Shown here piece by piece: positions 1,849 through 63,898 of a stretch of DNA of 64,000 nt (positions are counted from its first letter, which is position 1; each line of letters begins with the position of its first letter). Source of the stretch: Candidatus Bathyarchaeota archaeon (GTDB taxonomy: Archaea; Thermoproteota; Bathyarchaeia; 40CM-2-53-6; RBG-13-38-9). The stretch spans positions 448,001-512,000 of the forward strand of contig CAWECG010000001.1 of assembly GCA_963807605.1 (NCBI GenBank). Reading direction: 5' to 3'. Under the pieces are notes generated by a model. It worked only from the letters and a program-made list of their open reading frames with translations, was not told where the DNA came from and ran no database searches. A program made the position numbers and the translations under genes.

Positions 1849-1988
1849 CAATGACTCGAACATTTCTCTTTTGTAGGATCTTCGAGCGCGCGCCTATCGA
1901 ACAGGTGTATACAAAACACTGATTAGTACCAGCACACCAAGTAAAAAATAACGCATCGTCAATCTTTTGGTTTGCAGGAAAATATCGA

Positions 1989-2309
1989 TTATATTGCCCT
2001 AACTAACTCTCTTTTAGCTTCCTCTGGCGGCAGATTTTGCTCTCTAATACCTTTTATTGTTGCGGCTAGAGCTTCGTCTTTCAACATTTCTGATACCCAT
2101 TTCTCGAAGTCTCCCCTGTCGAGATGGAAAGCTATCGATTTACTGTCTACGGCCTTCAAGCATTCTTTGAACTCTTTTAGCGTAGAAGCTGATTTGTTAG
2201 CGGGCACGCCCACGTCCAGATAGAAATGGAACTCTCTACCCGGAGGAGCTCTGGCCACTTTGGCTATTTGAGTTCGTCTTCTACCTGCGGTTGTTGACAA
2301 GAAAATCAC
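1989..2309 (-). CDS. Stand-alone DUF5752-like domain protein
   Basis: EFHFY...A..LKEFKECLKAVDSKSIAFHLDRGDFEKWV closely parallels the C-terminal domain of the GH57 at 7587-9125 (AFHFR...SIEYHFARGDFEKWI). Confidence 0.7.
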   Translation of the reverse strand: MIFLSTTAGRRRTQIAKVARAPPGREFHFYLDVGVPANKSASTLKEFKECLKAVDSKSIAFHLDRGDFEKWVSEMLKDEALAATIKGIREQNLPPEEAKRELVRAI

Positions 2310-2543
2310 CTCGAATGAATCCTAAAATGTACTATGATATTCACGGAAGATAAAAGGGTGTAGGTGGGTCGACCAGATTTCGGAGTTGTTATGCATCAGT
2401 ACTGAGACAGACGAGAAATTCGTAAACCATCCCAGTCACGCGCTTCTTTTATCTCTATGCCTACTGATTCAGAACTAGAAAGTGTCCTTTCCATATTCAC
2501 ATGAAAATGATTTGCGGGATTATTCTAAGCTAATACCTTTTAG

Positions 2544-3878
2544 GTGCTTTCTCTGAAAGTCATAGATAATATCGATATAACAACAGTCAATTTGCTGTTG
2601 ATAGAATTGGCCACGGGTACCACGACCGATTATGACCCTGGATCCTTAGTGACAATAATTCCTATTGGCGGGGAGGCGAAACGTTTACTCCCACTCACAG
2701 CGGAGGTCGCCAAGCCGTGCATTAGGCTGCTAAACCGCCCCATTGTTGAGATGTCACTGTTATCCCTTACAAGTCAAGGAGTAAGAAACTTCATCTTTGG
2801 AGTTAAGGGCTATACCAACTACAGGAGTCTTTACGATTACTTCCAGTCAGGCGTTGACTTCTCAGCAAGATACAAGGTCGATCCACCTGTTCACATCAAG
2901 TATCAGCCCAACGTAGAAGACTGTGGAAGCGCTGACTCAGCCAGAATAAATATTGAATATTATGATATTGAAAAACCGATATTGATTATTCAAGGCGACA
3001 ATATTCTCGACGTTGACCTCAAAGATCTCCTGACTTTTCACCAAGCTAGAAGAGCCTACATGACGATTGGACTTGTACCCGTAACCGACGTTACAGGATA
3101 CGGCATAGCCGATATCGATAAGGACATGAGGATATCAAGGTTTGTTGAGAAACCTAGTCCAAATGAGGCACCATCAAATCTAGCGAACGCGGGACTCTAC
3201 TTGATCTCTCCAAAGATCAGGAGGATCTTCAAAGAGAAGACGATTCAAGAGAAGATTCTAAACAAGCGGTTAGATTTTGGCTACGATCTGATACCCTACT
3301 TGGTAGATGCTGGGATACGTGTCTTTGGGTATGTCCTGAAGGGAACATGGTTTGATGTAGGAACGCCGGAAAGATATCTTGAGGCGATGAAGGCTATACT
3401 TCACGGTCAACTGAAAGCCTTGCAGGACTTCGGCAGTAAGACATCTGAGAATCCTGCTGTGTGGATCCAGGGGGAGAGTATCGAATCCATTCGCACTAGG
3501 GAAGAGATAATGCAGAAGATCACTAGAGGCAAGATCAAGGTTGAAGGTCCCGTCCTTATAGGTAGACACTGCAGGATATCTGACGGAGCTAGAATAGTCG
3601 AATCGTGCATTGACAACTATTCACAGATCGGCAAGAATGTGATCGTAGAGAGATCAGCTGTGATGGACCGCGTAATAGTCGAAGACAACGCCGAGATACG
3701 TGAAAGCATCATAGGAAGACACTCAACCATCAAATCCTGCAGAGCCAAGCCTACAAAGATCCTCCAAACTTCAGTCTTGGCGGACGATGTTACAGTCGAA
3801 GCAGGATGTAACCTTGTAAGCGCAAGAATTTACCCACACAAGTACGTTTCCGAATTCGGCTACACCGACAAGAGATGA
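2544..3878 (+). CDS. NDP-sugar pyrophosphorylase (glucose-1-phosphate nucleotidyltransferase family) with C-terminal left-handed beta-helix
   Basis: IPIGGEAKRLLPLT, QGDN, RFVEKP, ANAGLY, WFDVGTP and hexapeptide repeats; true start may be TTG at 2607. Confidence 0.85.
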   Translation: MLSLKVIDNIDITTVNLLLIELATGTTTDYDPGSLVTIIPIGGEAKRLLPLTAEVAKPCIRLLNRPIVEMSLLSLTSQGVRNFIFGVKGYTNYRSLYDYFQSGVDFSARYKVDPPVHIKYQPNVEDCGSADSARINIEYYDIEKPILIIQGDNILDVDLKDLLTFHQARRAYMTIGLVPVTDVTGYGIADIDKDMRISRFVEKPSPNEAPSNLANAGLYLISPKIRRIFKEKTIQEKILNKRLDFGYDLIPYLVDAGIRVFGYVLKGTWFDVGTPERYLEAMKAILHGQLKALQDFGSKTSENPAVWIQGESIESIRTREEIMQKITRGKIKVEGPVLIGRHCRISDGARIVESCIDNYSQIGKNVIVERSAVMDRVIVEDNAEIRESIIGRHSTIKSCRAKPTKILQTSVLADDVTVEAGCNLVSARIYPHKYVSEFGYTDKR

Positions 3879-3939
3879 GACAGATGCATCACGAGCACTG
3901 TCATATCGACTAATAGCAGACTCAGGAGTATCCAAAACA

Positions 3940-5860
3940 TTGGCAGATGAAGCGAACATTATAGAAAATACGCCGGGAGACGAACTACGACAGCGAGTAA
4001 AGGAACTCTCATGCTTGTATGGAATTGAAAAACTAATCGAACCAGGAGCAGACATCGACAGGATTCTGAACGGGGTGACCTCTCTAATTCCTTCCGCTTG
4101 GCATCAAGCTGATATCGCGTGTGCTAGGATCGTCTACGCTGGGCAGAAATTCGAAACAGCCAACTTCAAGGAGACCTTGTGGAGACAGTCAGCAGATATC
4201 AAAATTCTCGGAAAGAAAGTTGGCGCCGTAGAGGTCTACTATCTGGAAGAGAAACCTGAATTTCATGAAGACCCATTCTTCAAAGAAGAAAGAAATCTGA
4301 TAAATACAATTGCAGGAAGACTCAGCAGATTTCTTGAACGCAAGCAACTAGAGAAGACATTATCGGAAACTAAAGAGTTGCTGGAGAAGGTCTTCTCTAG
4401 CATCGACATCATGATCGTCTACATGGATAGAGATTTCAACTTCATACGTGTGAATCGGGCCTACGCCGAGGCTAACAGACATGAACCCGAGTTCTTCGTT
4501 GGCAAGAACCACTTTGATCTCTATCCAAGCAAGGAGAATGAGGAGATATTCCGAAGGGTCGTTGAGACCGCCGAACCCTATTTCACCTACGCTAAACCGT
4601 TCAAGAACCCTCTACGGCCCGAGCTTGAGATAACCTATTGGGATTGGGGCCTCCAACCCGTGAAAGAAACCGACGGAAGAGTAAGCGGATTAGTCCTAAG
4701 TCTCATTGATGTAACTGAGCGCCAGCAGGCACAGGCAGAGCTTGAGCGTTACCACAAACACTTGGAAGAACTGACTGAAGAGCGAACTAGGGACCTGAAG
4801 CATAGCGAGGCCCGTTACCGCGGAATCGTCGAAGACCTGACCGAACTGGTCTGCCGTTTCTCACCCGACGGCAAACTCACCTTTGTCAATGACGTTTACT
4901 GTCTATACTTCGGCAAAAGACGCGAGGAACTGGTAGGGTACAGCTTCATACCTCTCATCCATCAAGAGGACCGTGAAAGAATAGAGAAACAGATCGCATC
5001 CCTTAGCCCGGAGAGACCTTTAGCTGAGATTGAAGAACGCATTATAATGCCCAGTGGGGAGATTCGCTGGCAAGAGTGGACCAACCGAGCCATTTTCGAC
5101 GATCAGATGCGCTTGATAGAGATACAGTCAGTAGGACGCGACATCACCGAACGCAAGAATCTAGCCGAAATAAAAAACCGATTCATATCAGCCGTCACCC
5201 ATGAACTCCGAACTCCCCTCGTCTCAATTGGCGGGTACTTGGATTACATCCTTATGGGAAAGAGGGGGGCGGTGCCAGAAAATATTCAAGAGAGCCTCAA
5301 AATTGTCAAACGAAACGCTGACATGCTCCTCAGGTTAACGAATGACCTTTTGGAGATTCAACGCATCGAGTCCGGAAAGTTCAGTCTGAAGTTGGAGACT
5401 CTCGATCTTAGGAAAGTTATAGATCGATGCGTTGAAGAGATTCACATTCCTATCGAGAAGAAAAATCAGAACTTTCATCTAAAGATTCCTGAGGGATCCA
5501 TGCCAGTTAAGGGGGACTGGGAGAGGCTGAGCCAAGCCCTAATGAACCTACTCTATAACGCCAACAAGTTCACACCCGAGGGGGGGAATATAGTTCTTCA
5601 GGTGGAAGAGGATGAAGCCACCTTCAGAGATCCAAGTCTCTGATACAGGGCTCGGTATTCGGAAAGAGAATCTAGAGACAGTCTTTGAACCCTTTGCCGA
5701 CATCGAGAAACCAGAATACTTTAGAGGAACAGGATTAGGCCTGAGCGTCACCAAGGGCCTGATTGAGGCTCACGGAGGCAGGATATGGGCTGATTCAGAA
5801 GGGGAAGGCAAAGGATCTACCTTTAGCTTCGAAATACCCAAATTAATGGGCGAGGGATAA
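3940..5860 (+). CDS. PAS-PAS sensor histidine kinase, split by a 1-nt frameshift near 5629
   Basis: Two PAS domains, H-box THELRTPL and N-box NLLYNANKF in ORF 3940-5643; G1 (VSDTGLGI), F-box and G2 (GTGLGL) continue in ORF 5612-5860. Confidence 0.85.
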
Positions 5861-5867
5861 TTCTTTC

Positions 5868-7485: not shown

Positions 7486-7586
7486 TTCGTGGACTCTTTT
7501 GATAAGGCTTGAACCCGACTCTGGCGCTTATGTCCCCATTGTCCTAATTGCGAGCAAGTGCTAAAGAAACTGACTTTAGGATCTTC

Positions 7587-12389: not shown

Positions 12390-12598
12390 AGATCGCCGAT
12401 AAAATCGGTAACCGTATTCTAACAGGGTGACGAAGCGATTTCGAGTGCGGTCGACCGACCTTGGGCGCGAATATCAAATATGTGCTTGGGTTGCTGAGCT
12501 GGTTTATCTCACGCGCGCGCGTTAATCGACAAGCTCAAAGAAGAGAAGCCAAAATGACTGGTTCTGAAACGCCACGTGTCAGATTCTAGAAGGATTGT

Positions 12599-14592: not shown

Positions 14593-15411
14593 CATCAAGG
14601 TGTAGACCAATCTTTCTAGGTACCGATGGATAACACAAAAAAGCTCAAGACTTTTGAGATCGCTGCCAGAGGTACGTTAGTATGATGACGACGTACGTCA
14701 TGAAGGCTGTAGAATGTTTGAACATCTTGAAGGAGTGTCGCCAATTGCCGCGCTGATTTCACCCATGGACATATGGTAAAAAATATCCGTTATTAAAGAA
14801 CCTAAACCTACTATTGCCTAAACAAGAGATACATTCCAAGCAAGTGCTTTCTTCTTTTCAGACTTGGACACGGAAATCAGCTCAGATGGAGGGAATATAA
14901 TCTCACTTTAATCTCTTAGGATTTAGGGATTGGTCATTCACGACTACGAACAAACCTCGAAAAATCTAGGAGATTAAGCGGACTCTCGTCCTAATGATTG
15001 TGCCCCGGAAAGCGTTTGTGCTAAGGCTGATGAGGGGGTATAGATGACTAGCGCTATGAGTGATGGAATGAATGTCACGATTAGTGCCGTTATGAGTTGA
15101 TGTTGCCACAGCAGGTAGAAAGCAGCTAAGCAGTACCAACGTCCTTGAAGACTTTAAGTGGATGGATTTCATGGTAGCGCGCGCGAATCTACCTTCATCA
15201 TAAACGCTATGATTAGCTTCCTAATCTGCGCAGATTAGCATTTAACGCAGCAACAATTATCATACAGTTCCCAAGGAACTCCAAGTAAGTATAAGTATGG
15301 CATATATACGCGCGTACATGGAGAATGCGATTAATCGACACGTAATGTTTAATATGCGACGGACTATTCGGTGGAGTTTCAACCTAGAAATTTGGAGTAC
15401 AGGATCGATGA

Positions 15412-22316: not shown

Positions 22317-22687
22317 TCCAGAATAGTGGCAGAGAAACCGCGAGCGTAATTATTTTGATTTGGATTGTTTGGCCTAACGGTTTCTTTATCCTCAATCCTA
22401 TTATCACTATTGAGGCTAAAACAACTGCTAATGTAATTGCCGCGAAATAGACTGACCATGATGTTTCTGTCTTATTCGTCGTTTCCGTCCTTGTCTGATT
22501 GTTTGTTGCTTTCGCGCGCGCTAGCGACGCTTGTGTCGTATTTGTGGACATGCATCATTGCTGCTTCTACCGTGGCTCATAGTAGTCATCCGCTTCCTTC
22601 ACGTGTTACACTTCTATGTCCGGCTATCCCAGATGAAGTGGTAGGGGCTAGCCCAGCATAGCTGTATAGTCCTCTAGCGCGCGTTAC

Positions 22688-23989
22688 TCACAGACATTGA
22701 CCCTCAGTTTTCAGCGCTTCCTTCAAGATCTTTACGGCACAATATCCGGAGCACATTGAACACGTCTCGGGATTTTTCAGTCTGATTCTGTCGCGAATCT
22801 TCGCGGCTTTCTCTGGATCCAAGGCATTCTCCAGCTGACTTTCCCAATCAAGGTTCGCTCTAGCTTTTGCCATGGCCAAGTCACGAGCGGCCGCTTTTGA
22901 TCCAAGCTTTGCAATGTCGACTGCGTGTGCCGATATTTTGGTAGCCATAACACCTTCTTTAACATCTTCTAAAAGGGGCAAACCCAGATGCTCTGAAGGC
23001 GTCAGGTAACAAAGGAAGTCAGCTCCGGCGAGTCCTGCAAGGGCTCCACCGATAGCTCCAACGATGTGGTCGTATCCCGGTGCTATCTCAGTTCCAAGGG
23101 GACCTAGTACATAGAGAGGCGCCCCCTTGCATATCGACTTTGCAAGCAGAACATTTGATTCTATTTCGTTAAGCGGTAGATGCCCAGGTCCTTCAACTAT
23201 AGCTTGTACATTTGCAGTCCTGGCTCTTTCCACGAGTTCTCCTATTGTGAGCAACTCCTGAATTTGAGGCCAGTCGGTTGAATCGAAAATGCATCCTGGT
23301 CTAAGGCCATCGCCTAGGCTTAGTGCAAAGTCGTATTTTGCAGCCAATTCCAGAAGGTAGTCGTAGTTTGCGTACAAGGGATTTTCTTTATTATGATGCA
23401 GGATCCATGCGGCTAGAAAGGTGCCTCCGCGGCTGACAATTCCCATCAGGCGTGGGTGCTTTGCTATCCGTTTGACGATTTGTTGTGTTACCCCGCAATG
23501 GACTGTCATGAAGTCAACGCCATCTTTGGCGTGTTCTTCTATCGTGTTGAAGATGTCATCTTCGGTCATGTGTATAATTGAGCCCCTCTTCTCAGATGCT
23601 TCGATAGCGGTTTGATATATGGGGACGGTTCCAATTGGAACATTAACATTCCTAAGAATCGACCTTCGTATATCATTCAAGTTGCCGCTTGTGCTAAGAT
23701 CCATAATGGTGTCTGTGCCATACTTGACAGCGATCTTAGCCTTCTCGATTTCTAAATTGAGATCACATAAGTCAGGGCTTGTTCCTATGTTTGTGTTGAT
23801 TTTGGTGCGCAGCCCTTTTCCAATTCCAATTGGATGAACATTTTCGCGTTGATTATTTCTGGCTATGATTACGGTTCCTTCAGCTATTCGTTGACATATC
23901 GTTGAAGGCAGCTCATCTTCATCCTTGGCTACTGTACGCATTTCTTCTGTTATTTGTCCCTTCTTCGCAAATCCTATTTGGGTTGCCAA
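22688..23989 (-). CDS. thiC: Phosphomethylpyrimidine synthase
   Basis: TKINTNIGTS, DTIMDLS, GTVPIYQ, SRGG, EGPGHLP, PGYDHI and C-terminal CSMCSGYC. Confidence 0.93.
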   Translation of the reverse strand: MATQIGFAKKGQITEEMRTVAKDEDELPSTICQRIAEGTVIIARNNQRENVHPIGIGKGLRTKINTNIGTSPDLCDLNLEIEKAKIAVKYGTDTIMDLSTSGNLNDIRRSILRNVNVPIGTVPIYQTAIEASEKRGSIIHMTEDDIFNTIEEHAKDGVDFMTVHCGVTQQIVKRIAKHPRLMGIVSRGGTFLAAWILHHNKENPLYANYDYLLELAAKYDFALSLGDGLRPGCIFDSTDWPQIQELLTIGELVERARTANVQAIVEGPGHLPLNEIESNVLLAKSICKGAPLYVLGPLGTEIAPGYDHIVGAIGGALAGLAGADFLCYLTPSEHLGLPLLEDVKEGVMATKISAHAVDIAKLGSKAAARDLAMAKARANLDWESQLENALDPEKAAKIRDRIRLKNPETCSMCSGYCAVKILKEALKTEGQCL

Positions 23990-24064
23990 ATTGATTTATC
24001 GCTCCAACCCAAGAAAAGCCGAGTTAGATCTGAGTTAGAGTGCACCAAATCAGGAATTCGGTAC

Positions 24065-24156
24065 ACGCCCCCTCCGCCAGCATTATCTGAATGAGGTTCT
24101 AGGGTCGGCGGTTCACCAGACCGCCCTCTCAGCCGGCTAACCAGCTCCCCTGGCGC
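24065..24156 (-). promoter_or_regulatory. TPP (THI-box) riboswitch upstream of thiC
   Basis: Minus strand GCGCCAGGGGAGC...GCTGAGAGGGCGG..CCGCCGACCCTAGAACCTCATTCAGATAATGCTGGCGGAGGGGGCGT: conserved GCUGAGA, ACCC, GAACCU, UAAUGC and GCGGAGG elements; P1 GCGCC/GGCGT. Confidence 0.92.
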
Positions 24157-24402
24157 TTGCTTGTCTGAAATCGACAATACTCCGGAATTTAAAGTCTTTT
24201 GTAGATACCTGCATAACTGTTCTAGCGCGCGCCTGAAGTATATGTCGGCTGGATAGAGATAACCGTGCGCGCTGACGTCGAGGAAGGTTCATATGTGCAA
24301 TATCGGAAGGGGTAGGCATTGTTAGCTCCTCAGTGAGCGTTAGCCGAAAAAGAGTCGGTAGACAAAGGGTCGCGATATCACAATAATCATGATGAAAGAG
24401 AT

Positions 24403-27393
24403 TTGCTCACAGGACACGCCTCGCTTCAAGAAGAACTAGAAGACATTGAGACATACGCACAGCCTTTATCCAAAATATCAGAAAAGTGGGGTTCAGATCT
24501 TGAACGTGGTCTCTCCGACAATGAAGCCAAAGAAAGACTTCGAGAATATGGTCTGAACCTAATTCCAAAGATAAAGCCTAGCTTTTACAGGATATATCTT
24601 GCACCCTTCCTCAATTGGCTGATAGATATCTATTTGATTATTAGCATAGTCTTGGCATTTCTTGCATTCTTCGTGCTGCATGAGGCTTATGGGCCAGTAA
24701 CCTTCTGGCTCTCAGTGATTAGTGTCAACGCCGTCGTAGCCGTGGTGCAGGAGGCCAGAGCGCAAAAGAAAATGGAGGCGCTCCAGAAGCTTTCCGCTTC
24801 AAAGAGCAAAGTAGTCCGAAAGGGTAGGCTCCTCGAAATACCATCAGAGCAGATAGTTCCAGGAGATATCATAAGACTTGAACAGGGAGACAGAATCCCT
24901 GGTGATGCTAGGATCATCAACGCGTCGAGCCTCAGGGTGAATGAAGCATCTCTAACTGGAGAGTCTGAAGAAGTAGAAAAATTCGAGGACGACACACCAG
25001 TTGAACAGGGCACTCCTATTCCCGGAAGGAGAGACATGGTATTTCTAGGCACATTCGTGATTGCAGGCACGGCAAAGGCACTGATAACACAGACTGGAAG
25101 AGCAACTCAACTCGGAAGAATAGCAGGGAACATGGAAGGCCTTGACACTTATGAAATACCTCTACGCACTAAAGTCAACCGGCTGGCAAAATATCTTGGG
25201 CTTGCTGTTTTGACTTATCTCAGCATCTCGCTAACATATCACATAACTTCTCTTTACTTGCACAATAACCTCTTCGTAGCGGGTATCTTCAACACACCAT
25301 TAGTAGCAAGAAGAGTAGTCGAAAGCTTGATCACGGCTATGTCGATCATGCCAATCAATATCCCATTTTTAATTACAGTTGTTCTTCTCACCGGTGTTTT
25401 GACTATGGCCAATAAGCAAGTCATAATACGCGATTTGAATGCCGTTGAGAGCCTTGGTCGAGTATCCATAGTTTGCTCCGACAAAACTGGTACCATCACT
25501 AGAAACGAAATGACGGTAAAGTGGATTTGTTTACTTTCTAGTCGAAAAGATTACCTTTTCGGTGTCACGGGTGTCGGATTCCGCCCCAACGGAAGGATCA
25601 TAGAAATCGATCCAGATTCAAGTTTCGAAGAGACTATTAAAAAAGAGCCCGAACTTCATCATGGAAATGAGATCGAAATAGGATCTGAAACGCCTCTTGA
25701 ATACCTTATCGTATCAGGATTGCTCAACAACGACAGCACAATCACCAAAGGAATGGTGGAGAGCCCTGACGAGGAGAGAGAGGAAGATGCTTACCGTCCC
25801 TTAGGCGATACTACTGACGCCTCGATAGTAACATTATTCCACAAATCAAAACTCCAGGAAGAAATATACAGATCTAGATTTCAAGAAGCCTTCAATTATC
25901 CGTTTGATTCAAATTTAAAGCGTACAACAAGAATCCTCAGAGACAACAAGAACAACCGATATGCTGTTTTTACGAAAGGAGCTACCGAGATCCTCCTACC
26001 ATTTTGTAACTACATCACAAAAGGCGTCGTCACTGAAGTGGACATCCTAACAGACAAGGAGAGGGCTCAAATCTGCACAAGAGCCGATGGTTTCGCGTCG
26101 TCAGGTTATAGGGTCATCTCATTTGCTTTCAAGTATCTGGAAGAACTACCGTCGGCCAGTAAGAGCGTAAGAGAACTTGCTGAGGATAATCTAACCTATC
26201 TCGGCTTCGTGGCCATCATCGACCCCCCAAGGAAGGATGTTCACGAATCGGTGCTTGAGGCTAAGAGCGCAGGAATAAAACCTGTCATGATAACCGGCGA
26301 CAACTTGAAAACGGCGCGAAGCATCGCAGAGCAAGTAGGAATCGCCGGAGAACTCGATTTGGCTGTCGAAGGACATGAAATCCAGACCCTACCCGATGAA
26401 GATTTCTTGAGAACGTCTGTGTTTGCTAGAGTCACTCCAGAACATAAAATGAGTATAGTGGAACGTTACAAGAGACAGGATCACGTTGTGGTGGCAACTG
26501 GCGACGGTGTCAACGATGCACTGGCGATCTCTGTAGCTGATGTCGGCATCGCTATGGGCATTACTGGAACGGACGTTGCAAAAGAGGCTGCAGACATTGT
26601 AATAGCAGACGACTCGTTCAACTCAATTATTAGAGGTATCCGTGAGGGCCGAGGTCTCTTTCAGAAAATTCGAGCCATAATTTTCTTTTACATAGCGGTA
26701 AACCTCGCGGAAGCCTTGATCTATTTTGGTTCTTCATTAATCCCCAGCTTTCATCTACTGAACATGGCGCAACGTATCTATATCTTCACTACAGCGCATA
26801 CGATACCACCACTCGGGATTATTGTAGATCGCGTAAGTAAGGATGTGATGAAAGAAAAGCCACGAGACACAGAAGCCATTTTGAATAAACGACTGGTTAT
26901 CGCGCTCCTACTCTTTTCAGCATCATTGGGACTCATGCTTTATGCTGTCTATTTCTTCACCCTGGGCGGTACCATTCCTGTCTTCGCAGGAAACAGAATA
27001 GGATATGTTCCGGACTTCAATCCCAACAATCTCTTAGACTCAGTTAATTGGAGTCAGGCGAAGGCTCGCACAATGCTGCTTACGGTCATATTTGTGGCAG
27101 AGTGCGCATTGGTAATCTCCTTAAGAAGGATGAACAAATCGTTCAGCAAAATATTAAAAGAAGACAATTATTGGATTATCTGGCCGCTCATACTGTTCGT
27201 TCCACTAGCTCATGTGTTATTGATGTATGTCCCAGCGATTCAATTGTTTCTGGCAGTTCGCTTAGGTATTGATCTCGAACTTATTACACTTACATGGATC
27301 GATTGGATTATTGCTTTCGCTGTTGGATTGACTCCTATCGCGTTATTGGAGGCTTGCAAATATTGGGTGCGCAAGAAAAGATCCAACTTTTAG
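24403..27393 (+). CDS. P-type ATPase with P2A-like scaffold and non-canonical transport site
   Basis: TGES, DKTGT, KGATE, DPPR, MITGD and GDGVND intact; M4 reads MPINIP rather than IPEGLP. Confidence 0.88.
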   Translation: MLTGHASLQEELEDIETYAQPLSKISEKWGSDLERGLSDNEAKERLREYGLNLIPKIKPSFYRIYLAPFLNWLIDIYLIISIVLAFLAFFVLHEAYGPVTFWLSVISVNAVVAVVQEARAQKKMEALQKLSASKSKVVRKGRLLEIPSEQIVPGDIIRLEQGDRIPGDARIINASSLRVNEASLTGESEEVEKFEDDTPVEQGTPIPGRRDMVFLGTFVIAGTAKALITQTGRATQLGRIAGNMEGLDTYEIPLRTKVNRLAKYLGLAVLTYLSISLTYHITSLYLHNNLFVAGIFNTPLVARRVVESLITAMSIMPINIPFLITVVLLTGVLTMANKQVIIRDLNAVESLGRVSIVCSDKTGTITRNEMTVKWICLLSSRKDYLFGVTGVGFRPNGRIIEIDPDSSFEETIKKEPELHHGNEIEIGSETPLEYLIVSGLLNNDSTITKGMVESPDEEREEDAYRPLGDTTDASIVTLFHKSKLQEEIYRSRFQEAFNYPFDSNLKRTTRILRDNKNNRYAVFTKGATEILLPFCNYITKGVVTEVDILTDKERAQICTRADGFASSGYRVISFAFKYLEELPSASKSVRELAEDNLTYLGFVAIIDPPRKDVHESVLEAKSAGIKPVMITGDNLKTARSIAEQVGIAGELDLAVEGHEIQTLPDEDFLRTSVFARVTPEHKMSIVERYKRQDHVVVATGDGVNDALAISVADVGIAMGITGTDVAKEAADIVIADDSFNSIIRGIREGRGLFQKIRAIIFFYIAVNLAEALIYFGSSLIPSFHLLNMAQRIYIFTTAHTIPPLGIIVDRVSKDVMKEKPRDTEAILNKRLVIALLLFSASLGLMLYAVYFFTLGGTIPVFAGNRIGYVPDFNPNNLLDSVNWSQAKARTMLLTVIFVAECALVISLRRMNKSFSKILKEDNYWIIWPLILFVPLAHVLLMYVPAIQLFLAVRLGIDLELITLTWIDWIIAFAVGLTPIALLEACKYWVRKKRSNF

Positions 27394-27472
27394 TCTCGTT
27401 GGAATCTTCTGAGGTCAATGTTTTACAGACACAAAAAATTCGAGCACGCTAGAGCTTCGTATTCGTGTGTAC

Positions 27473-27516
27473 AGTAAAATGGTGCGGGGGAGGGGATTCG
27501 CGCACTACTTTATTAG
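27473..27516 (-). repeat. Diverged tRNA-3'-end palindromic (att-like) repeat, copy 4; overlaps aglB stop
   Basis: AGTAAAATGGTGCGGGGGAGGGGATTCG-CGCACTACTTTATTAG versus AGTAAATTGGTGCGGGGAGTGGGATTCG-CGCACCAGTTTACCAG. Confidence 0.75.
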
Positions 27517-30249: not shown

Positions 30250-30734
30250 CAGGTATTCCTCAAATATGCATGTGCGTCGGTATTGTCAACTCGCAGCGTA
30301 TTCTTCACGAGGAGTGGCATCGGAACTTAAATCTATCGCTAGGCGCCGGTCTATTAGTCATTGTATATTCAGTGTATGGAGCTCGCGATTAGATCTCCTA
30401 ATAGATTTTGATTACCATCTCGGATCAAATCTCGCATATGAAAAATATCTTTCCGATAGGCGTCAGTACTGCAACCTTTAGTCATATGCACGCGTAGCCC
30501 TTCATGACTGCTCTGGAGCTTGCCACATACAGACACGCATTCTCCTCAACAGAAGTCACCGAGACCTTATCCAATAGAGGCGTAGGCTGTCACCATAAGT
30601 CTGAAGTGAATGAAACCATATTCCAAGGTCTATTGATACACTGGATAATCTATGCGATTCCTCTTCCCTACAGCGGCAAGACAGACAAGTTTCAGAACTC
30701 TTGACCAATGCAAGTGCGGGCGCGCGCTTAGTGC

Positions 30735-39160: not shown

Positions 39161-39208
39161 AGTAAATTGGTGCGGGGAGTGGGATTCGCGCACCAGTTTA
39201 CCAGTACA
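39161..39208 (-). repeat. tRNA-Leu 3'-end palindromic (attP-like) repeat, copy 2
   Basis: AGTAAATTGGTGCGGGGAGTGGGATTCGCGCACCAGTTTACCAGTACA, 48/48 identical to 39837-39884. Confidence 0.95.
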
Positions 39209-39362
39209 TATAAATAAATTTCGGACTATAAACCATTCTAGCTGTCAAGGCTTTGCAACCACTGTGATGACGATGCGGTAGAACTGCGAAATCTCCAACC
39301 AGCCTAACTCGTCTAATCAACGTTTACAAGTTAGCATGAGGCCCTATTGTCATCAACGTTGA

Positions 39363-39836: not shown

Positions 39837-39884
39837 AGTAAATTGGTGCGGGGAGTGGGATTCGCGCACCAGTTTACCAGTACA
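39837..39884 (-). repeat. tRNA-Leu 3'-end palindromic (attP-like) repeat, copy 1
   Basis: Identical to 39161-39208; bases 39838-39864 (27 bp) match the tRNA 3' end and flank at 42639-42665. Confidence 0.95.
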
Positions 39885-42510: not shown

Positions 42511-42642
42511 TTGTGTGTATATGCCCTAATAGTCATAGGTTTCGGCAACGTCGGTAGATCATTTCTGACCATGATAACAGAGGAGAAGGAGAAAATCGCC
42601 AAGAAATTCAATTCTGAACTGAAAACCGTGGCGCGCTGGTAA
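42511..42642 (+). pseudogene. hom: Truncated 5' end of homoserine dehydrogenase
   Basis: MCVYALIVIGFGNVGRSFLTMITEEKEKIAKKFNSELKTVA-RW*: Rossmann GFGNVG start of HSD after cysK-metY; ends at GCGCGC beside the tRNA 3' end. Confidence 0.75.
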
Positions 42643-42644: not shown

Positions 42645-42781
42645 TGGTGCGGGGAGTGGGATTCGAACCCACGAAGGCCTACGCCACAGGGTATCCTAGG
42701 TATATCTTGATACCCCCTAAGCTTGACACATCGCGTCATCCGCGATGCCCTGCCCCTTAGGCCAGACTCGGGTATCCCCGC
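42645..42781 (-). tRNA. tRNA-Leu(TAG) with two BHB introns (30/31: 42723-42748; 37/38: 42693-42715) and encoded CCA
   Basis: Acceptor GCGGGGA/TCCCCGC-A-CCA, D-arm, anticodon stem CAGGG/CCCTG, long variable arm, GTGGGTTCGAATCCCAC; both introns fold as bulge-helix-bulge; mature length 88 nt. Confidence 0.93.
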
Positions 42782-42938
42782 CCGTGCCAATCGATCTAAC
42801 TGACAGCAATCACGTTATATCTTTATCCCGCAATCGAAGACGGTCGCAAGATCATATTTCCGATAAGTTTGATTAGTTGCTTCTAGATTAATTCTACCAC
42901 CTAAGCCTTCCCAGAAACCGGAAAGAGCCTATGTTGAG

Positions 42939-43956: not shown

Positions 43957-44052
43957 CTGATCTCTTAACCATCTCGTAGGAAAAGAACTGACTAAAGAAA
44001 AAGGATATTCATAGCCCGTCCTTACAGTCTGGATTCGCGCGCGCTAGTGTGC

Positions 44053-45131: not shown

Positions 45132-45306
45132 ATGACGGCTAAGGGCAAATCGATCAACGCTACCATGAAGATATTCGTGTTATACATCGGGATACTCCTT
45201 ACAAGGGCGGGTTTTGGTTCAATACTTCTTCTCTTCCCGTTGTACCTGAATGTAGGCAGTGTCGAACTGGAGCAGCGTTATCGGGTATCCAATCGCTGAG
45301 TTCGCG
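45132..45306 (+). pseudogene. Truncated, frameshifted N-terminus of an MFS-type transporter
   Basis: MKIFVLYIGILLTRAGFGSILLLFPLYL...GAALS.YPIAEFA (TM1-TM2 pattern); ends exactly at TTCGCGCGCGCTA. Confidence 0.5.
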
Positions 45307-45759
45307 CGCGCTACCGTGAAACCAGAGAAAAACGAGAGATCACACCTAAACCAACTGCGTCATTCAGATCAGCTCTCTCTGAAGTACTAGTTGTCATTTA
45401 TCTCGCTATTGCACGTTTATCTTCAGATAAATCAAGAAATCCTATTGTTTTCTCATTAGCTGAAATTCTTCATACTCTGCATTGACATAATGTGCTCAAA
45501 GGTATTACGAGAAAGGATTAAATGTATTACTTTGGTATACGTAAACCAAGATGTTGGGTAATGATGGAGCTATTAGTCTGTCCACACTGCAGCGAAACCC
45601 TTCGTAATGACGACTACTACCTCCACATCCACCTATGCGCTGCTTGCGCACAAGAATCCGAGACTTGACCGTAGGCGTGCCGCACAAATCATGTGACTGA
45701 AGATCTTTCTCTTAGAACGTTATCTATTTTACGTCTAACTCGTGTGAAGTGTGTAATAG

Positions 45760-47470: not shown

Positions 47471-47531
47471 AAGAGTCGCCCCAAATAGAGCAAGTCAAAG
47501 TAACAGCGCGCGCTAGTCTCAGTGCGTACAC

Positions 47532-51393: not shown

Positions 51394-51423
51394 GGCACGC
51401 GCTCGGATATCCAGTTTTAGATT

Positions 51424-51947: not shown

Positions 51948-52538
51948 TTACGCGCGGTTATTCTGATCTGTGTCTTTGACCTTCCTGATGAGCCAGACCA
52001 TTTTCTTCCCGAAGTTCTTTGCAGTCAGTAGACCCTCCTCGTCTTTGGTTACTTCCCCTTTTTCTCTGCCAAAGGCTACATTCCAGTAGGTGGAGCCTGG
52101 AACGATCATCCCCTGATGAAGAAGGAAAAACAAAAGTTGGGCAAAGGTAAAGTTGTGTCCTGCTCTCCTCGCGACAACCACCGCCCCACCGATTTTGTTT
52201 TCGAAGACTCTGTTTCTGGCTCCTGACAGTTCTCCAGCTCTGTCGATTAGTGCCTTTATTTGAGGTGTCGCCGAACCGAAGTAAACGGGAGAGGATAAGA
52301 TTATGCCGTCTGCCTCGACCATCTTGTCAAAGATAGGCCTAAAGTCGTCCTTTATTTTGCATTCACCTGTCTTTTTGCAGGATAGGCAAGCATCGCACGG
52401 CTTGATCTCTCTGTTCGCTAAGCTGATCAGTTCTGTTTCAGCACCATCCTCTTTCGCTGCTTTCAGTGTCTCAGCGACTAGACGTTCGGTGTTTCCCCCC
52501 ACTCGAGGGCTTCCAACGATACCCAGTATGCGGATCAT
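51948..52538 (-). CDS. Iron-sulfur flavoprotein (flavodoxin-fold)
   Basis: GSPRVGGNT, CDACLSC.....C, SPVYFG, RRAG and GSTYWN. Confidence 0.9.
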   Translation of the reverse strand: MIRILGIVGSPRVGGNTERLVAETLKAAKEDGAETELISLANREIKPCDACLSCKKTGECKIKDDFRPIFDKMVEADGIILSSPVYFGSATPQIKALIDRAGELSGARNRVFENKIGGAVVVARRAGHNFTFAQLLFFLLHQGMIVPGSTYWNVAFGREKGEVTKDEEGLLTAKNFGKKMVWLIRKVKDTDQNNRA

Positions 52539-56793: not shown

Positions 56794-56816
56794 TAGCGCG
56801 CACGCCCCGCGCGCTA
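56794..56816. repeat. Perfect 8-bp inverted repeat TAGCGCGC-N7-GCGCGCTA
   Basis: Two head-to-head copies of the recurrent (CG)n-TA motif. Confidence 0.7.
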
Positions 56817-56862
56817 CATTTTTAAGATTATCTTTTGATCGAAGGCACAGGTTGGACTCGTA

Positions 56863-58131
56863 TTGCCAGTTGATCTTTCAAGTGATATTTGTGGCGTTCA
56901 CTTCACAAACCCGTTCATACTCTCGTCAGCCACGCCCACAAAGACTGCCAAAAACATTCTTAGAGGGATAGAAGCCGGTTGGGGTGGAGCTGTTGTTAAA
57001 GCGCTTTCTCCTCTAGATTATAATAGGCTCTATCCTAGACCAAGATTCAAGATCTATTGGCTTAAAGATCAGGGAGCATACCCCAAGATCCTTCCCAGAG
57101 CACTGACGATAACAGACATTGAGGAATCCTCCCATCTGGCTCCTGAAGATTGGGTGAAAGAGCTGGACGAAGCAAAGAAGCTTGCAGGCGACGAGGCCGT
57201 GATCATCGGGCAAATAACCGCTGGCGACATGGAGACTTGGGAGAGTTACATTGAGCTGGTGAACGGTTCAAGAGCGGACATGTTAGAGCTAAACTTCTCA
57301 TGCCCATATGCTGGAGAGCCTGGAACACAGAAGAAGGGGGAGAAGATCGGATGGCCTCTGATGTACATGGCTGAAGAGGTCATAAGGCTTGCTAAGAGGA
57401 AATGCGCCATACCATTTAGCCCCAAGATCTCCTCCCAAACAGGGGAGGTTGATGAGTGGGCAACAAGATTTGAGAGTGCAGGTGCACCGTGCCTAACTCT
57501 GTCGCATAGAATCTCAACCTTGGACATTGACATAAAGACTGCAAAGCCCGTGCCATTCGGCTGCATCATGGGCTTCGGTGGACCCTACCTAGTCGGATTT
57601 TCACTCAAATGGATCGCGAAAACAGCGCCGAAAGTGAATGTGCCAATAATGTCGAATATGGGGATGCTTGAATGGAGTGATGCGGTGAAGTACATAATGG
57701 TCGGCGCCTCAGCAGTCCAGAGCTGCTCCGCAGTGATGGTTCAAGGCTATGATGTTGTCAAGCCTTGGCTTACAATGCTGAGCAAATTCATGGAAGAGCA
57801 AGGCTATTCATCAATAAAGGAAATGAAAGGTCTAGCTTTGCCCCACATAGTCCCACCGAGCATGGTTGAGAGAGGAAATGAAGGCGTCTACGCCGTTGTA
57901 AATCCGTCCAAGTGCACAGGATGTGGAATATGTAAACGCTGTTGCTTCTACTTTGCCATAGATCTCAAAAGTGGAAAAGCAGATGTTGATCTCAAGAAGT
58001 GTGACGGATGTGGGCTATGTCAAGAAGTCTGCCCAGAAGACGCGATTGAGGCTAAGAAAATAGCGGATAGAGACATCTATCCTAGACCGGACTCAAAACC
58101 ATACCATAGACACTACATACCCGGCGCATAG
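56863..58131 (+). CDS. Dihydropyrimidine dehydrogenase PreA-like FMN enzyme with C-terminal ferredoxin
   Basis: NPFILSS, AGWGGAVVK, ELNFSCP, GASAVQ, CTGCGIC...C and CDGCGLCQEVCP. Confidence 0.8.
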   Translation: MPVDLSSDICGVHFTNPFILSSATPTKTAKNILRGIEAGWGGAVVKALSPLDYNRLYPRPRFKIYWLKDQGAYPKILPRALTITDIEESSHLAPEDWVKELDEAKKLAGDEAVIIGQITAGDMETWESYIELVNGSRADMLELNFSCPYAGEPGTQKKGEKIGWPLMYMAEEVIRLAKRKCAIPFSPKISSQTGEVDEWATRFESAGAPCLTLSHRISTLDIDIKTAKPVPFGCIMGFGGPYLVGFSLKWIAKTAPKVNVPIMSNMGMLEWSDAVKYIMVGASAVQSCSAVMVQGYDVVKPWLTMLSKFMEEQGYSSIKEMKGLALPHIVPPSMVERGNEGVYAVVNPSKCTGCGICKRCCFYFAIDLKSGKADVDLKKCDGCGLCQEVCPEDAIEAKKIADRDIYPRPDSKPYHRHYIPGA

Positions 58132-58362
58132 TGAAAACAAGAATACATATGCGTGCGAATTCTGGTGCTCCTTCGCGTGTGAATCTATCGCGGGACGCAT
58201 AAGGGCGAATAAGAGCATATTTCTGTATATAGAAAAAATGATTCCTCGTCTTGCAGTATATAGAAGGATTAGGGAGGCGTCTACATCGACCCGTGGTTCT
58301 TTGGCCGTGATAGCGCGCACTCAGAGACTAAGCTCGCAAAAGAACTGACAGTTTTGCTTGAC

Positions 58363-59008: not shown

Positions 59009-59318
59009 ATACCATCATCACTGAATCAATCTACATAGGTGCTATTATTGCTATGGGTAGCGTGGGCTTCGCAATCGTCACCCACGTACAGCACGTGTGG
59101 ACTCCGCGCCCTATAAGATCTTTTGGAAGTAGATGAGACATGTTATGATACCGATGAGGTGATGAGTTCATCATCGTCCCATCGGGTTTGAGGATCTTGT
59201 TTGCGGAGATCTTTGTATCGGAGACATTATGCTATCGATGTCACATCAACGACGCGACGAGTGATTGAGCCCAATACGCGCGCGCGTGAACGTCGATAGC
59301 AGCTTGCACTAAGCATCG

Positions 59319-59726
59319 CTACTCTGTAGTTCGTCCGTCAAAGTGCTCCTCACTCGCCATTGCCTCCATTTTGGTGTGACGCACTACTCCGTCTTGGTGC
59401 TCGGGCGGAGAGTAGATCGTGTAGAGTCTGAGGTTTGCTCGCTTAGAAATGTTGACCACATTATGCCTAGCCCCCGCGGGAACGATGACACCATTCCCGT
59501 CTTTGATACGGTGTTCTACGCCGTCAATAATCACTTTTCCTACTCCTGCTTCAAATCTAAAGAATTGATCAACATCCTCGTGGGTCTCTTCACCTATTTC
59601 TTCTCCAGGCTTAAGGCTCATGAGTACGAGTTGACTGTGCTTCCCTGTATACAGCACCCGACGAAAATCAGTGTTCTTCTTGGTCTCTTTCTCAAGACTG
59701 ATTACGTATCCTTTCATTTTTATCAC
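59319..59726 (-). CDS. Cupin-domain protein
   Basis: FRRVLYTG.HSQLVLMSL.PGEEIGEETH..DQFF, HNVVN and LYTIYSPPEH. Confidence 0.9.
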   Translation of the reverse strand: MIKMKGYVISLEKETKKNTDFRRVLYTGKHSQLVLMSLKPGEEIGEETHEDVDQFFRFEAGVGKVIIDGVEHRIKDGNGVIVPAGARHNVVNISKRANLRLYTIYSPPEHQDGVVRHTKMEAMASEEHFDGRTTE

Positions 59727-59871
59727 CGTAAGTTAATTCAACATCCGAGTTCTTATCAATTTAGCTCTTGTCAAAGAGAAGGAATTGTATGAGCAGCCTC
59801 ACATGTATGTGGGCTGTCAAGCGAACCAGATATCAAGTTTTGTCGAGTGCGTGTGGAGAACCTGAGTATAA

Positions 59872-61344: not shown

Positions 61345-61532
61345 TTGCCATCACCGTCTTCGTCTAGGTATCATAGGACTGTCAATCTTTATCTTGCCTG
61401 CGATCCTTTTCTGACATGACCTACGTTAGTTGTATCCGAGTTCAATCTCGCTAAGATCGGTCCGCTCAATAGGAGTGGTTTGATCCTAAGAGGACTCGCT
61501 TATGGAGTGTTGTGTGTCATCGGTTTCGAAGT

Positions 61533-62873
61533 TTAATGTCTTGCTAATGAGCCCAGCGGGTCCCAAAAGGGCAGGACCACCGGCTTGGTGTCAAGGATTT
61601 TCAGGAGTTCTGGAGCGAGATACTCTTTCCTTACTACTACCTCGTAGACGTATTGGTCGAACCATTCATCTATCATATACATGTATCCCTGATCTCCTAT
61701 CGTAGCTCCCCAACTGTTTTCAACGCGCCATTTCTGGGGATTGCCTTTCTCATCGAGGTCAACCCCCGTGATTACCATGGCGTGAGTCATCTCACTATCT
61801 TCATACTCCAATCTTGAAGCCTTATCAAGTTGGAACTTTGTGCTGTAGACTAGTTCATAGTCGTAGATGCTTAGATCCATTGCGCCCATGTCCGTCTGCA
61901 GCATTTTGGCTACGTCACATCCGAACCATACCGCATGATTACCTTTTATCATGTCGACGGTTGCTTTCTTCAGTGTTATCAAGTCGACATTTAGGTAAAG
62001 AGTATCTTGCCCACCGATTACGTTGCCAAGATACTGGACGGTATATGATTTGTCGAAGGGTTTGTCTTTTGTTGGGGCATTGATTAGACTAACATAATTA
62101 TTAAGATCTAATCCTACATATTCATTGTAGAATTCGACTGGCGTAATGTTTCCCCTTCTGTGGAAATTGCCGTCTTTGTCCCGCCACTCCCAGTAAAATG
62201 TCTCTGGAGGGATGCCAAGGTTGATGCACAGTAACCTATAGAATTCTTCCATTAATTCTCTTTTTTTCTTTCTTAGTTCAGTCGTGGAAGCCCTTTCCTG
62301 GTTCATCTCTCGGAGTACTTTGGCATATTCTCTTAGTTTCGTATTGAGCAGAGCATTCATTGGTTCGGAATAGTTGCTATTGGCTGTTTCCGGCATGAAC
62401 GTTTTTGGCATAACGCCGTACTTTTTCAGTAGGTTCACAAACATGTTCCATTGGCCGCCATCTGACATTGGGTCTGAGAGAAGCGCCCCAACTAGCCTGC
62501 CATTCAAGGGCTCTTCCTTCGTTTCAATCACATTTTCCAGGAGGTAGTTGGCTTTCTCCAGTTTGTCCCAAAACATCTGGTATATTTCAGAGAGCTCAAA
62601 TGTTCTCAGATTCAATTTTTTCATGGCTTCAAGAGCCAGTATACTTAGTCCAGAAAATAGCCAGCATCTTCCTGATCTTTCTTGGTTCGTAGCATCTGGC
62701 GACTCGATGAGATCGCTAAAGGTGAAGTTTTGTCTGTCCACTTCTTTTCTACTTAAGGCAACCGCGGCTATACCATTTTCTGTGACGGCATTCATGGAGA
62801 GTATGTTTCTTGGGTCTTTGTTGAAGGATCGTGAAAAAAGTCTCAAATCTTCAATGCATAAACATTTTTCCAA
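61533..62873 (-). CDS. pepC: Aminopeptidase C / bleomycin hydrolase (C1B)
   Basis: NQERSGRCWLF, DGGQW, VWFGCDV, THAMVITG and WRVENSWG; TTG 62873 assumed as start. Confidence 0.92.
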   Translation of the reverse strand: MEKCLCIEDLRLFSRSFNKDPRNILSMNAVTENGIAAVALSRKEVDRQNFTFSDLIESPDATNQERSGRCWLFSGLSILALEAMKKLNLRTFELSEIYQMFWDKLEKANYLLENVIETKEEPLNGRLVGALLSDPMSDGGQWNMFVNLLKKYGVMPKTFMPETANSNYSEPMNALLNTKLREYAKVLREMNQERASTTELRKKKRELMEEFYRLLCINLGIPPETFYWEWRDKDGNFHRRGNITPVEFYNEYVGLDLNNYVSLINAPTKDKPFDKSYTVQYLGNVIGGQDTLYLNVDLITLKKATVDMIKGNHAVWFGCDVAKMLQTDMGAMDLSIYDYELVYSTKFQLDKASRLEYEDSEMTHAMVITGVDLDEKGNPQKWRVENSWGATIGDQGYMYMIDEWFDQYVYEVVVRKEYLAPELLKILDTKPVVLPFWDPLGSLARH

Positions 62874-63173
62874 AAGATACCCTCTGAATATCTTTTTCTT
62901 GTTATAAGATATAAGATAGCTATAAGATGTTGCAAGTCGTTGAAGCATCACATCATTTGTTTCATTGCTAACGGAACGAATTACAGCTGAGGAACACTCA
63001 TTATTCAGATCATTTTGCCACATGATCTCGAAGAGGGAGGCCAGTTCAGCCAGCCCATACCTAGATGGGGACTAGTATATTGAAGAGAAGAAATTACCTA
63101 CGATTAAAGTGTAGGCATAGGACGCTATCTTGCCATCTGATCATTCTCTCTGTAATATCTGGACGCGTCTTAG

Positions 63174-63438
63174 TCATCTTTCCTTGAATAGGAAAAATAT
63201 TATCGAGATTGCCAAAACAGTGGCCGCCACTATCTTGAGTTGAAAACTCGTTTTACGGGTCTTGTGATGAAATGCAAACATCCCCAACAACTCCGCCAAA
63301 GCCTCCTGCCAGAGAGATCAAGAAGAACCACATTTCTGGCACTCTTTCAGAGTCCATCTTTGCACTGAACTTATCGAAACCCATCAGGAGAAGACTGCCG
63401 ACGTTTACAATGAGTAGATAGATCCAGATTAGGTCCAA
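63174..63438 (-). CDS. DUF1294-family membrane protein, frameshifted near 63285
   Basis: LMGFDK..A...RVPE..F..SLAGG..G continues in another frame as GMFAFHHKTRK.SF. Confidence 0.75.
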
Positions 63439-63489
63439 GTTTGGGATCGGCTCACCTTAGTGGAGAAGTGACTACGCCCACCGCGCGCT

Positions 63490-63620
63490 TAGTAAGGCTT
63501 GTTAAGGCTTGTCGAAGCTTACCAACATGCTTCTCTAGCATTCACCAGAACTGTATACAAATACAGCACATAAGCCTAGTAAGCTTCAGAAGGCTTTGGT
63601 AAGCTTATGATAAGGCTTGT
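63490..63620. repeat. Cluster of short (T)AAG(G)CTT repeats
   Basis: TAAGGCTTGT twice in tandem, AAGCTT, TAAGCCT, TAAGCTT, AAGGCTT, TAAGCTT and TAAGGCTTGT within 130 bp. Confidence 0.5.
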
Positions 63621-63898
63621 TTGATACGCTTTTGTAGCTTCAGTATGCTAATGTGTACCACTGAAGTATACACTTTGAGACACTTGAACACTGTATCCTT
63701 AGGCATTGAAGACACACTAATCATCATCTGCAAGCACTATCTCAGGCTCAAGTATGTGTACATATGTACGCCTAGCGACCATGACCATAGGATAGAGATG
63801 AACCATAGTAGAATGTACTATGTACTAAGTACCTCGTTGCCGGCCAGAAAGTACAGCACGCGCGCGCGTAAAAAGATGCACGAGTGACGGAGTGTAGG

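Follow-up and report, generated by a model that had tools for sequence, protein, structure and literature searches.

The stretch analysed here, called the window below, is a 64-kb segment of the genome of a Candidatus Bathyarchaeota archaeon (C1:448001-512000 of genome G000, which comprises 2.65 Mb in five contigs at 47% GC). Short GCGCGCGC tracts lie between its genes, and on the sequence comparisons given below they are scars, newly written where broken DNA was rejoined. The reading preferred here, with a probability of roughly 0.7, is that these tracts are scars at joins whose sequence is dictated by a small structured RNA, which is encoded at the 3′ terminus of a PriS-like primase gene located elsewhere in the genome and is copied into DNA by that primase.

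A search for maximal alternating C/G runs recovered all 11 tracts of 8-10 nt in the window exactly where an earlier sequence-only reading had placed them. That reading had also expected less than one such tract by chance at about 45% GC; the GC content of the window is 44-49%, and CGCGCGCG matches 10 times against 0.26 in shuffles, none of the 100 shuffles reaching 10. By our own crude gene calls, none of the 11 long tracts falls inside a well-scoring open reading frame (ORF), as had been judged by eye, and 22513 alone lies in a weak ORF of 85 codons. The 13-mer TTCGCGCGCGCTA, said to be shared by four tracts, is exact at 15175 (reverse strand), 22511, 44034 and 45301. The list of shorter runs stood in part: runs are found at 22677 (7 nt), 42631 (6 nt), 56796 (6 nt), 56808 (7 nt), 58313 (6 nt) and 63482 (7 nt), while 52606 is ACGCGCT, with a run of only 5 nt; further 6-nt runs, which the list had passed over, begin at 15309, 24267 and 51951.

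Evidence that a tract marks a joint was obtained at 22513, 24225, 42631, 44036, 47506, 56808 and 63482, through comparison with other parts of the genome and with the sister genome G001 of the same genus. The 9-nt CG tract 22513..22521 lies 5 nt beyond the point at which homology to sister contig C32 stops, and the 8-nt GC tract 24225..24232 stands where the block of thiC and its thiamine pyrophosphate (TPP) riboswitch meets a P-type ATPase gene, a 96%-identical stretch common to the window and sister contig C333 stopping at 24217, 8 nt ahead of the tract. The riboswitch itself (Rfam RF00059, 61.8 bits) is at 24053-24161 on the minus strand, upstream of thiC (22688-23989, minus strand). The 6-nt GC tract 42631..42636 truncates a gene and is next to a tRNA end: the 36-codon fragment that ends at it corresponds by blastx to residues 5-40 of a 342-residue protein (C3:916700-917728), and 51-nt repeats begin 3 nt past it. 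Directly past the 9-nt CG tract 44036..44044 begins a paralogous copy on contig C2 (44341-44957) with 95.8% identity, and the C2 copy has no tract of its own. The 8-nt GC tract 47506..47513 separates a uracil-DNA-glycosylase gene from a fumarase gene, and a 68-nt repeat, 98.5% identical to C4:22216-22283, begins 2 nt past it. Two tracts of 6 and 7 nt, 6 nt apart, occupy 56796..56814; homology to sister contig C32 begins 1 nt past the second, and the sister genome has no tract at the matching point. Finally, repeats of C1:134434-134769 and C3:73978-74128 begin 7 nt past the 7-nt CG tract 63482..63488.

The remaining long tracts (1886, 12512, 15177, 30720, 45303, 59277 and 63859) are intergenic, with functionally unrelated genes on either side, and no informative homologue was found for these seven when one was sought. 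The 8-nt GC tract 1886..1893 lies between convergent gene ends; the ORF to its right (1989-2309, minus strand, 106 codons) is a gene fragment, whose match to DUF5752 is confined to the C-terminal half (profile positions 105-206 of 208). Convergent genes also enclose the 10-nt CG tract 12512..12521; the right one encodes a receiver domain and has paralogues. On either side of the 9-nt GC tract 15177..15185, the reverse-strand copy of TTCGCGCGCGCTA, stand a peroxiredoxin gene and an AsnC-type gene. The 8-nt GC tract 30720..30727 is in a divergent intergenic region, the 9-nt CG tract 45303..45311 in a 1-kb gene-free stretch across which synteny with the sister genome breaks; the 10-nt CG tract 59277..59286 is intergenic, and the 10-nt CG tract 63859..63868 precedes by 15 nt the start of a long gene leaving the window. 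As for the shorter runs, the TA-flanked 6-nt CG tract 15309..15314 and the 6-nt GC tract 24267..24272 could be due to chance; the 6-nt CG tract 51951..51956 is at a gene stop codon, with homology to the sister genome beginning 12 nt further on, and the TA-flanked 6-nt GC tract 58313..58318 lies 10 nt from a stop codon. The proximity of tracts to stop codons and tRNA ends, which had been remarked earlier, was borne out: the 7-nt GC tract 22677..22683 is 4 nt from the thiC stop codon and 44036 is 8 nt from one, a minus-strand tRNA has its CCA end 11 nt from 42631, and 30720 lies 11 nt before a tRNA-3′-like fragment, which recurs on contigs C2 and C4. The tRNA gene beside 42631 (approximately 42648-42790, minus strand, 3′ end at 42648) has an encoded CCA and apparently a long intron, and was missed by ARAGORN and Rfam.

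The supposed kinship of the tracts with the tRNA-end junction GATTCGCGCACYA found no support: the latter is a separate feature derived from tRNA ends, and no tie to the tracts was found. Units of GATTCGCGCACYA occur in the window at 27495, 32460, 39183 and 39859 (4 matches against 0.09 expected), and repeats of 48-51 nt at 39161-39213 and 39837-39884 recur on contig C2. They look like remnants of attachment sites of integrated elements.

For the genome-wide counts, a tract was defined as an alternating C/G run of at least 8 nt, and 320 are present in the genome. The number of runs declines normally up to 6 nt and then climbs again (6 nt: 321; 7 nt: 127; 8 nt: 198; 9 nt: 74; 10 nt: 36; 11 nt or more: 12), so that 308 of the 320 tracts are 8-10 nt long; alternating A/T runs of 8 nt number just 12. 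The base preceding the tract is A in 82% and the next base out is T in 43%, with no conservation beyond 2 nt. What recurs is therefore only the palindrome (T)A(GC)4T(A) itself, with no longer repeat around it. The intergenic enrichment that the sequence-only reading had proposed to count extends to the whole genome: 279 tracts (87%) are intergenic, 38 coding and 3 on an edge, which corresponds to a roughly 26-fold enrichment in density under our own crude gene calls, by which 78% of the genome is coding. The majority of these "coding" tracts are no more than 60 nt away from an ORF end, and no preferred distance of tracts to gene starts or stops exists genome-wide. The tracts are clumped in mosaic or accessory islands (index of dispersion 5.9 per 50 kb), and the window sits in one such hot island (C1 350-600 kb). 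All five exact copies of TTCGCGCGCGCTA in the genome belong to a single C1 island, one at C1:349534 and four in the window; that four of the five should fall in the window by chance has a probability of about 1e-5. Among 31 relatives, AGCGCGCGCT has 16-119 copies in genomes of the same family and 0-3 in the other families of the order. As a separate observation, (CA)n and (TG)n microsatellites of up to 116 nt are also strongly over-represented in this genome. In addition, two insertion-sequence (IS)-like elements of about 1.12 and 1.14 kb with inverted terminal repeats (C3:162626-163746, with copies elsewhere; C1:359514-360652 and C1:381536-382674) carry GCGCGC tracts on both sides of each copy.

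Alignment of the genome to itself gave 129 alignment ends within 6 nt of a tract, against 30.3 ± 9.5 (maximum 64) when tracts were placed at random in intergenic DNA. At 152 of the 186 tract-associated alignment ends, the partner copy has no tract at the matching point. Moreover, homology ends on both flanks at 11 tracts, and 8 of these connect sequences of two unrelated loci that are both free of tracts. The clearest case is a clean deletion joint at C3:253659-253666, where AGCGCGCGCT occupies the position of roughly 253 bp still present in the paralogue (between C3:49266 and 49519). Old tract copies carry point mutations. The tracts thus sit at joints and were newly written there. The target-site duplication or excision footprint of a transposon, a repeat that copies its target and so varies between sites, was considered and rejected, the same sequence being found at hundreds of unrelated sites and at simple deletions.

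The comparison with the sister genome leads to the same picture. Its DNA aligns to the genome under study solely in coding DNA, at 66-81% identity, and only stretches of 79-98% identity are informative, because most other alignment ends merely coincide with gene ends. Window positions 23817-24217 share 96% identity with G001:C333:1-401, and positions 27185-27417 share 98% with 588-820 of that contig; such identity amid 66-81% elsewhere suggests a recent exchange of DNA between the lineages. Here the sister genome has only a 233-bp tail fragment of the P-type ATPase gene, with a tract at either side exactly where homology begins and stops, while in the window the gene is complete (24403-27393) and the corresponding points are free of tracts. 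Window segments 22408-22508 and 56815-56966 are adjacent on sister contig C32; in the window each of them ends at a tract (22513 and 56808, respectively), and the sister copy continues past the window breakpoint until a tract of its own interrupts it elsewhere. None of the 31 tracts in 35 kb of the sister genome is spanned by an alignment to the genome under study, and for 6 of them an alignment end is found no more than 8 nt away, where chance would give 1.6 ± 1.6. The events are thus independent in each lineage, and the process has been active since their split. Between 40 and 60 kb of the window, nearly every gene-sized block maps to a different sister contig, and a tract is present at 6 or 7 of about 10 breaks; since nearly all spacers in this region are breaks, it does not by itself demonstrate any specificity of breaks for tracts. 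The proposal that the tracts are recombination or capture scars at module junctions is therefore upheld: breakpoints coincide with tracts both within the genome and against the sister genome, truncated genes are bounded by them, and the unbroken versions are free of them. Neither of the outcomes that the sequence-only reading had named as refuting it, a lack of intergenic enrichment or alignable sequence running through the motifs in relatives, was observed. The accompanying suggestion, that tracts are targets of the same machinery, may hold in a secondary role; it is retained because all five copies of the 13-mer share one island.

Outside the window, the genome contains, besides a regular PriS gene, a second, divergent gene from the superfamily of archaeo-eukaryotic primases (AEP) (C3:72237-73127, 297 codons), which is PriS-like, and a decayed second copy of the latter at C1:380.2-381.4 kb. 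At least 132 homologues were collected from metagenomes. Among 27 of them the motifs DxD and SGxGFH are invariant (D96, D98 and the S148/H154 block). The closest solved proteins by sequence are archaeal PriS (4e-11 in the PDB; TIGR00335 at 4e-13), and archaeal PriS is also closest by fold (5e-10, with an AlphaFold model of mean pLDDT 82), the polymerase domains of LigD being weaker fold matches at about 1e-5. The catalytic motifs and the predicted PriS fold place the protein in the PriS branch of the AEP superfamily, and it is regarded as a divergent paralogue because its scores are under the family cut-offs (24 against 26.8 bits in Pfam; 49 against 143 bits in NCBIfam). No match to a reverse transcriptase was found by sequence or by fold, and a search of the genome with the Prim-Pol profile PF09250 gave no match. 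In 75 loci no conserved neighbour family stands beside the gene, including no Ku, ligase or PriL-like gene. Most homologues are on short contigs; on long contigs, the gene and the RNA described next lie among housekeeping genes (eIF5A, SRP54, PCNA, GrpE).

A conserved element covers the gene's 3′ end together with the DNA immediately past it (C3:72265-72378, same strand as the gene). It is composed, in order, of a P1 strand, CUGA, the hairpin P2, GAUGAAA, an unpaired stretch, a stem, the second P1 strand, CGAUGAC and a stem-closing strand. A covariance model built from nine copies was applied to 95 further loci, and in 83 of them it recognised the element at the gene's 3′ terminus and in the gene's orientation. 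Over these 83 sequences, 95.6% of the cells pair and both-side changes occur in 9 of 11 pairs; compensatory cells number 92 against 22 in shuffles (0 of 500 reach 92), and slid controls pair at 32-48%. Depending on the locus, the stop codon comes before, inside or after the element, and because its position varies, the element is an RNA rather than a protein tail. These patterns show at the sequence level that gene and RNA form a unit and travel together. A helix P3, which would form a pseudoknot with P1, is visible in nine sequences. No Rfam family matches the RNA at E up to 1. The RNA was also set beside box C/D (k-turn) small RNAs, in which C (RUGAUGA) and D (CUGA) boxes frame guide regions; boxes CUGA and GAUGA are conserved in it, and that they form a k-turn and perhaps bind L7Ae is only a guess from the motifs. 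A strict sequence pattern for the RNA, applied to 400 Bathyarchaeia genomes, was discarded, as it returned mostly chance matches in coding DNA and only the copies in the genome under study and its sister were real. The unpaired stretch consists of a short self-complementary core followed by a (U)A-rich sequence such as (U)AAA. The cores vary by lineage and are always self-complementary: GCGC or CGCGCG, AGCUAGCU, CGGCCG, and GCAUGC or CGCAU. The genome under study holds two variants, GCGCG-UA and CGCGC-UA.

The RNA core and the tracts vary together. On the contigs carrying the RNA, with the RNA itself masked, tracts of at least 8 nt were counted for each class of core. GC cores of both subclasses (41 loci, 259 kb) are accompanied by 110 GC, 5 AGCT, 2 GGCC and 5 GCAT tracts; AGCU cores (3 loci, 19 kb) by 2 GC and 13 AGCT tracts and none of the GGCC or GCAT types; GGCC cores (2 loci, 9 kb) by 1 GC and 5 GGCC tracts and none of the AGCT or GCAT types; and GCAU cores (23 loci, 112 kb) by 16 GC, 1 GGCC, 13 GCAT and no AGCT tracts. 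For own-type tracts against the rest, Fisher tests give p = 2.8e-13, 2e-7 and 6.7e-8, values which overstate independence because the loci of one core class may be related. Besides the core, the base that flanks the tract tracks the RNA base beside the core: GCGC-UA goes with A in 87 of 168 flanks, CGCAU-AAA with T in 23 of 30, and GCGC-AAA with T in 20 of 50. Both phases predicted from the two RNA variants are present in the genome under study (A-CG in 172 flanks, A-GC in 331). It is shown, from sequence counts, that the RNA core predicts the local type of tract. The defining property of telomerase, namely that an RNA template specifies the added DNA, would thus be reproduced here as covariation of core with tract and of flank with neighbouring base, at the level of correlation.

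From these observations we infer that the primase is the enzyme, that it makes a DNA copy of the RNA, and that this serves to join ends. In the mechanism proposed, the primase would hold the RNA and use its unpaired stretch (a core such as GCGC with the following (U)AAA) as a template. Copying would start at or beside the U/A after the core, and a few nucleotides would be added to the 3′ ends of broken DNA. Because the tail would be self-complementary, any two tailed ends could then anneal; fill-in and ligation would leave a palindromic tract, with an A or T at each edge copied from the base beside the core. The event recorded by such a scar could be a deletion, a truncation, an insertion or the capture of foreign DNA. 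With 5-nt cores, two tails would make joints of up to 10 nt, in agreement with the steep fall in tract counts beyond 10 nt; a few tracts on other contigs exceed twice the core length. A wider claim, which is held somewhat less firmly and is still favoured over its negation, is that the primase and its built-in RNA template constitute a ribonucleoprotein that makes sticky self-complementary tails on any broken end. It would be an analogue of telomerase independent of reverse transcriptases, with a product reprogrammable through the RNA core, and would act in Bathyarchaeia as a universal DNA glue driving the mosaic of gene cassettes.

Several points weigh against the scar-writing reading. AgaPP, an AEP enzyme already characterised, showed hardly any primer extension on RNA templates with Mg2+ (PMC11724360). 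In the genome under study, the RNA by the intact gene predicts the minority A-CG phase, and the majority A-GC phase fits the RNA by the decayed copy. The clustering of TTCGCGCGCGCTA may reflect a burst from one RNA variant or the re-use of old tracts. Genome G149 possesses the gene with a GGCC-core RNA and has few matching tracts: CGGCCGGCCG occurs in 3 copies against 0 of a control, and an unbiased word count over 400 kb of this genome revealed no enriched word. The word first forecast for it, TACGGCCGTA, proved not to be enriched and was given up; the right form is a (GGCC)n tract, which does occur there, though rarely. Furthermore, no intact gene was found in the tract-rich genomes G002, G004, G007, G010 and G015, and G003, G009 and G013 have only gene fragments or weak RNA copies. 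Such missing genes are weak evidence, because the metagenome assemblies are fragmentary and scars would outlive the gene. The possible kinship of loci within a core class and the crudeness of the gene calls, both given above with the counts, belong here as well. As to distribution, AGCGCGCGCT is not clearly enriched in genomes of family f22 that contain the gene or its remnants, and an apparently intact homologue at G229:C53:7061-7816 (locus L095) is followed by no recognisable RNA, with little excess of the motif in that genome.

Among the other explanations, the correspondence between core, tract and flanking base would also be expected if the RNA were a guide that pairs with pre-existing tracts, at which an RNA-guided nuclease, recombinase or integrase then cuts without any new writing. 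The two IS-like elements, flanked by GC tracts on both sides as after insertion into such a site, agree with this, and the five exact 13-mer copies in one island hint at re-use of tracts. However, tracts are found where the unbroken version has none, as at the C3:253659 deletion joint and the ATPase fragment of the sister genome, and the same holds for the 152 tract-free partner copies; the protein belongs to a polymerase family of primases and is neither a nuclease nor a recombinase, and the gene has no conserved partner. A guide is therefore considered unlikely. The short contigs on which most homologues lie, together with the clumping of tracts in accessory islands, could instead point to a telomere maker that supplies linear plasmids, viruses or transposons with terminal repeats, the chromosomal tracts being by-products of integration or healed stray breaks. 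This, too, is improbable: copies of the gene on long contigs stand amid housekeeping genes, tracts also bound ordinary chromosomal deletions and gene fragments, and a linear element with terminal tracts was not seen here. Self-complementary RNA segments are known dimerisation signals, and the invariably palindromic core might serve another use of this kind, dimerisation through a palindromic loop for example, the tracts being made by some other process such as slippage or a sequence-biased terminal transferase. Very little probability is assigned to that combination, which leaves unexplained the four core classes and the flanking base that follows the local tracts.

The protein-binding site, Z-DNA element or terminator component offered as alternatives in the sequence-only reading received no support. 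A binding site of a dimeric protein, a Z-DNA-forming sequence or part of a terminator would account for a palindromic, intergenic and over-represented motif, but distances to gene starts and stops are not fixed, the length and phase of the tracts vary, the sister genome does not retain them at corresponding positions (0 of 31 spanned by alignable sequence), and they stand at breakpoints. The initial Z-DNA or protein-binding reading, which went with the idea that low GC content and low coding density pointed to a halophile, was dropped after the analyses of flanks, distances and breakpoints. A Z-DNA element would also leave the newly written tracts at deletion joints unexplained; a regulatory or structural role is now given scarcely any credence. 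An artefact of assembly or sequencing at chimeric joins would likewise put tracts at junctions of unrelated DNA. Yet the tracts recur in many independent assemblies (JGI, ENA, NCBI), their type follows the RNA on the same contig, and old copies have acquired point mutations, so that the chance of such an artefact is close to negligible.

No description of the motif, the RNA or the primase-RNA pair was found in the literature searched or in Rfam. If RNA-directed scar writing by the primase is correct, it would be the first RNA-templated DNA synthesis by an enzyme of the primase family and a second, independent invention of the telomerase principle. Archaea without Ku would gain a defined way of joining double-strand breaks, and the patchwork, cassette-like gene order of Bathyarchaeia would find an explanation. 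Each past breakage would also leave a readable mark, by which rearrangements in uncultured organisms could be dated and mapped, and a programmable writer of short tails on DNA ends would be a possible laboratory tool.

As a short palindrome that is hugely over-represented, the tract resembles HIP1 of cyanobacteria and REP of enterobacteria. HIP1 fills coding DNA too, and REP sequences are hairpin-forming units tied to a transposase; to our knowledge, neither has been described as a scar newly written at breakpoints. With the fillers of polymerase theta and of terminal transferase in V(D)J joining, the tracts share extra nucleotides encoded by neither flank, but those fillers are random or copies of nearby DNA, whereas here one fixed, lineage-specific sequence is found. 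The system also differs from non-homologous end joining by Ku and LigD in that no conserved Ku or ligase neighbour accompanies the AEP gene in the 75 loci.

Closer by protein family are the archaeal PriS/PriL/PriX, which take part in double-strand-break repair (PMC12019639), AgaPP, a primase-family enzyme of a mobile element with end-joining activity (PMC11724360), and the polymerase domain of bacterial and archaeal LigD. All belong to the same superfamily and carry out terminal transfer and the joining of short microhomologies; they act without an RNA partner and leave no constant filler, whereas here the microhomology would come from the RNA. In the bacterial defence system DRT10, a reverse transcriptase and a non-coding RNA are reported to make tandem-repeat DNA (bioRxiv 10.1101/2025.10.16.682844). 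The likeness is that a polymerase-associated non-coding RNA dictates a short repeat DNA; the difference is that DRT10 is a protein-primed reverse transcriptase directed against phages in bacteria, and the candidate here is an archaeal enzyme of the primase family connected with chromosomal joints. The nearest parallel is telomerase, since in both a polymerase would work with an RNA of its own, a short unpaired part of which would specify what is added to a DNA 3′ end, and the product would shift with the RNA. Unlike telomerase, in which TERT has a reverse-transcriptase fold, the system described here would rely on a primase fold (AEP, PriS-like); what is added is its own complement, there is no sign of processive repeat addition, 308 of the 320 tracts measuring 8-10 nt, and the product lies at internal joints rather than at chromosome ends.

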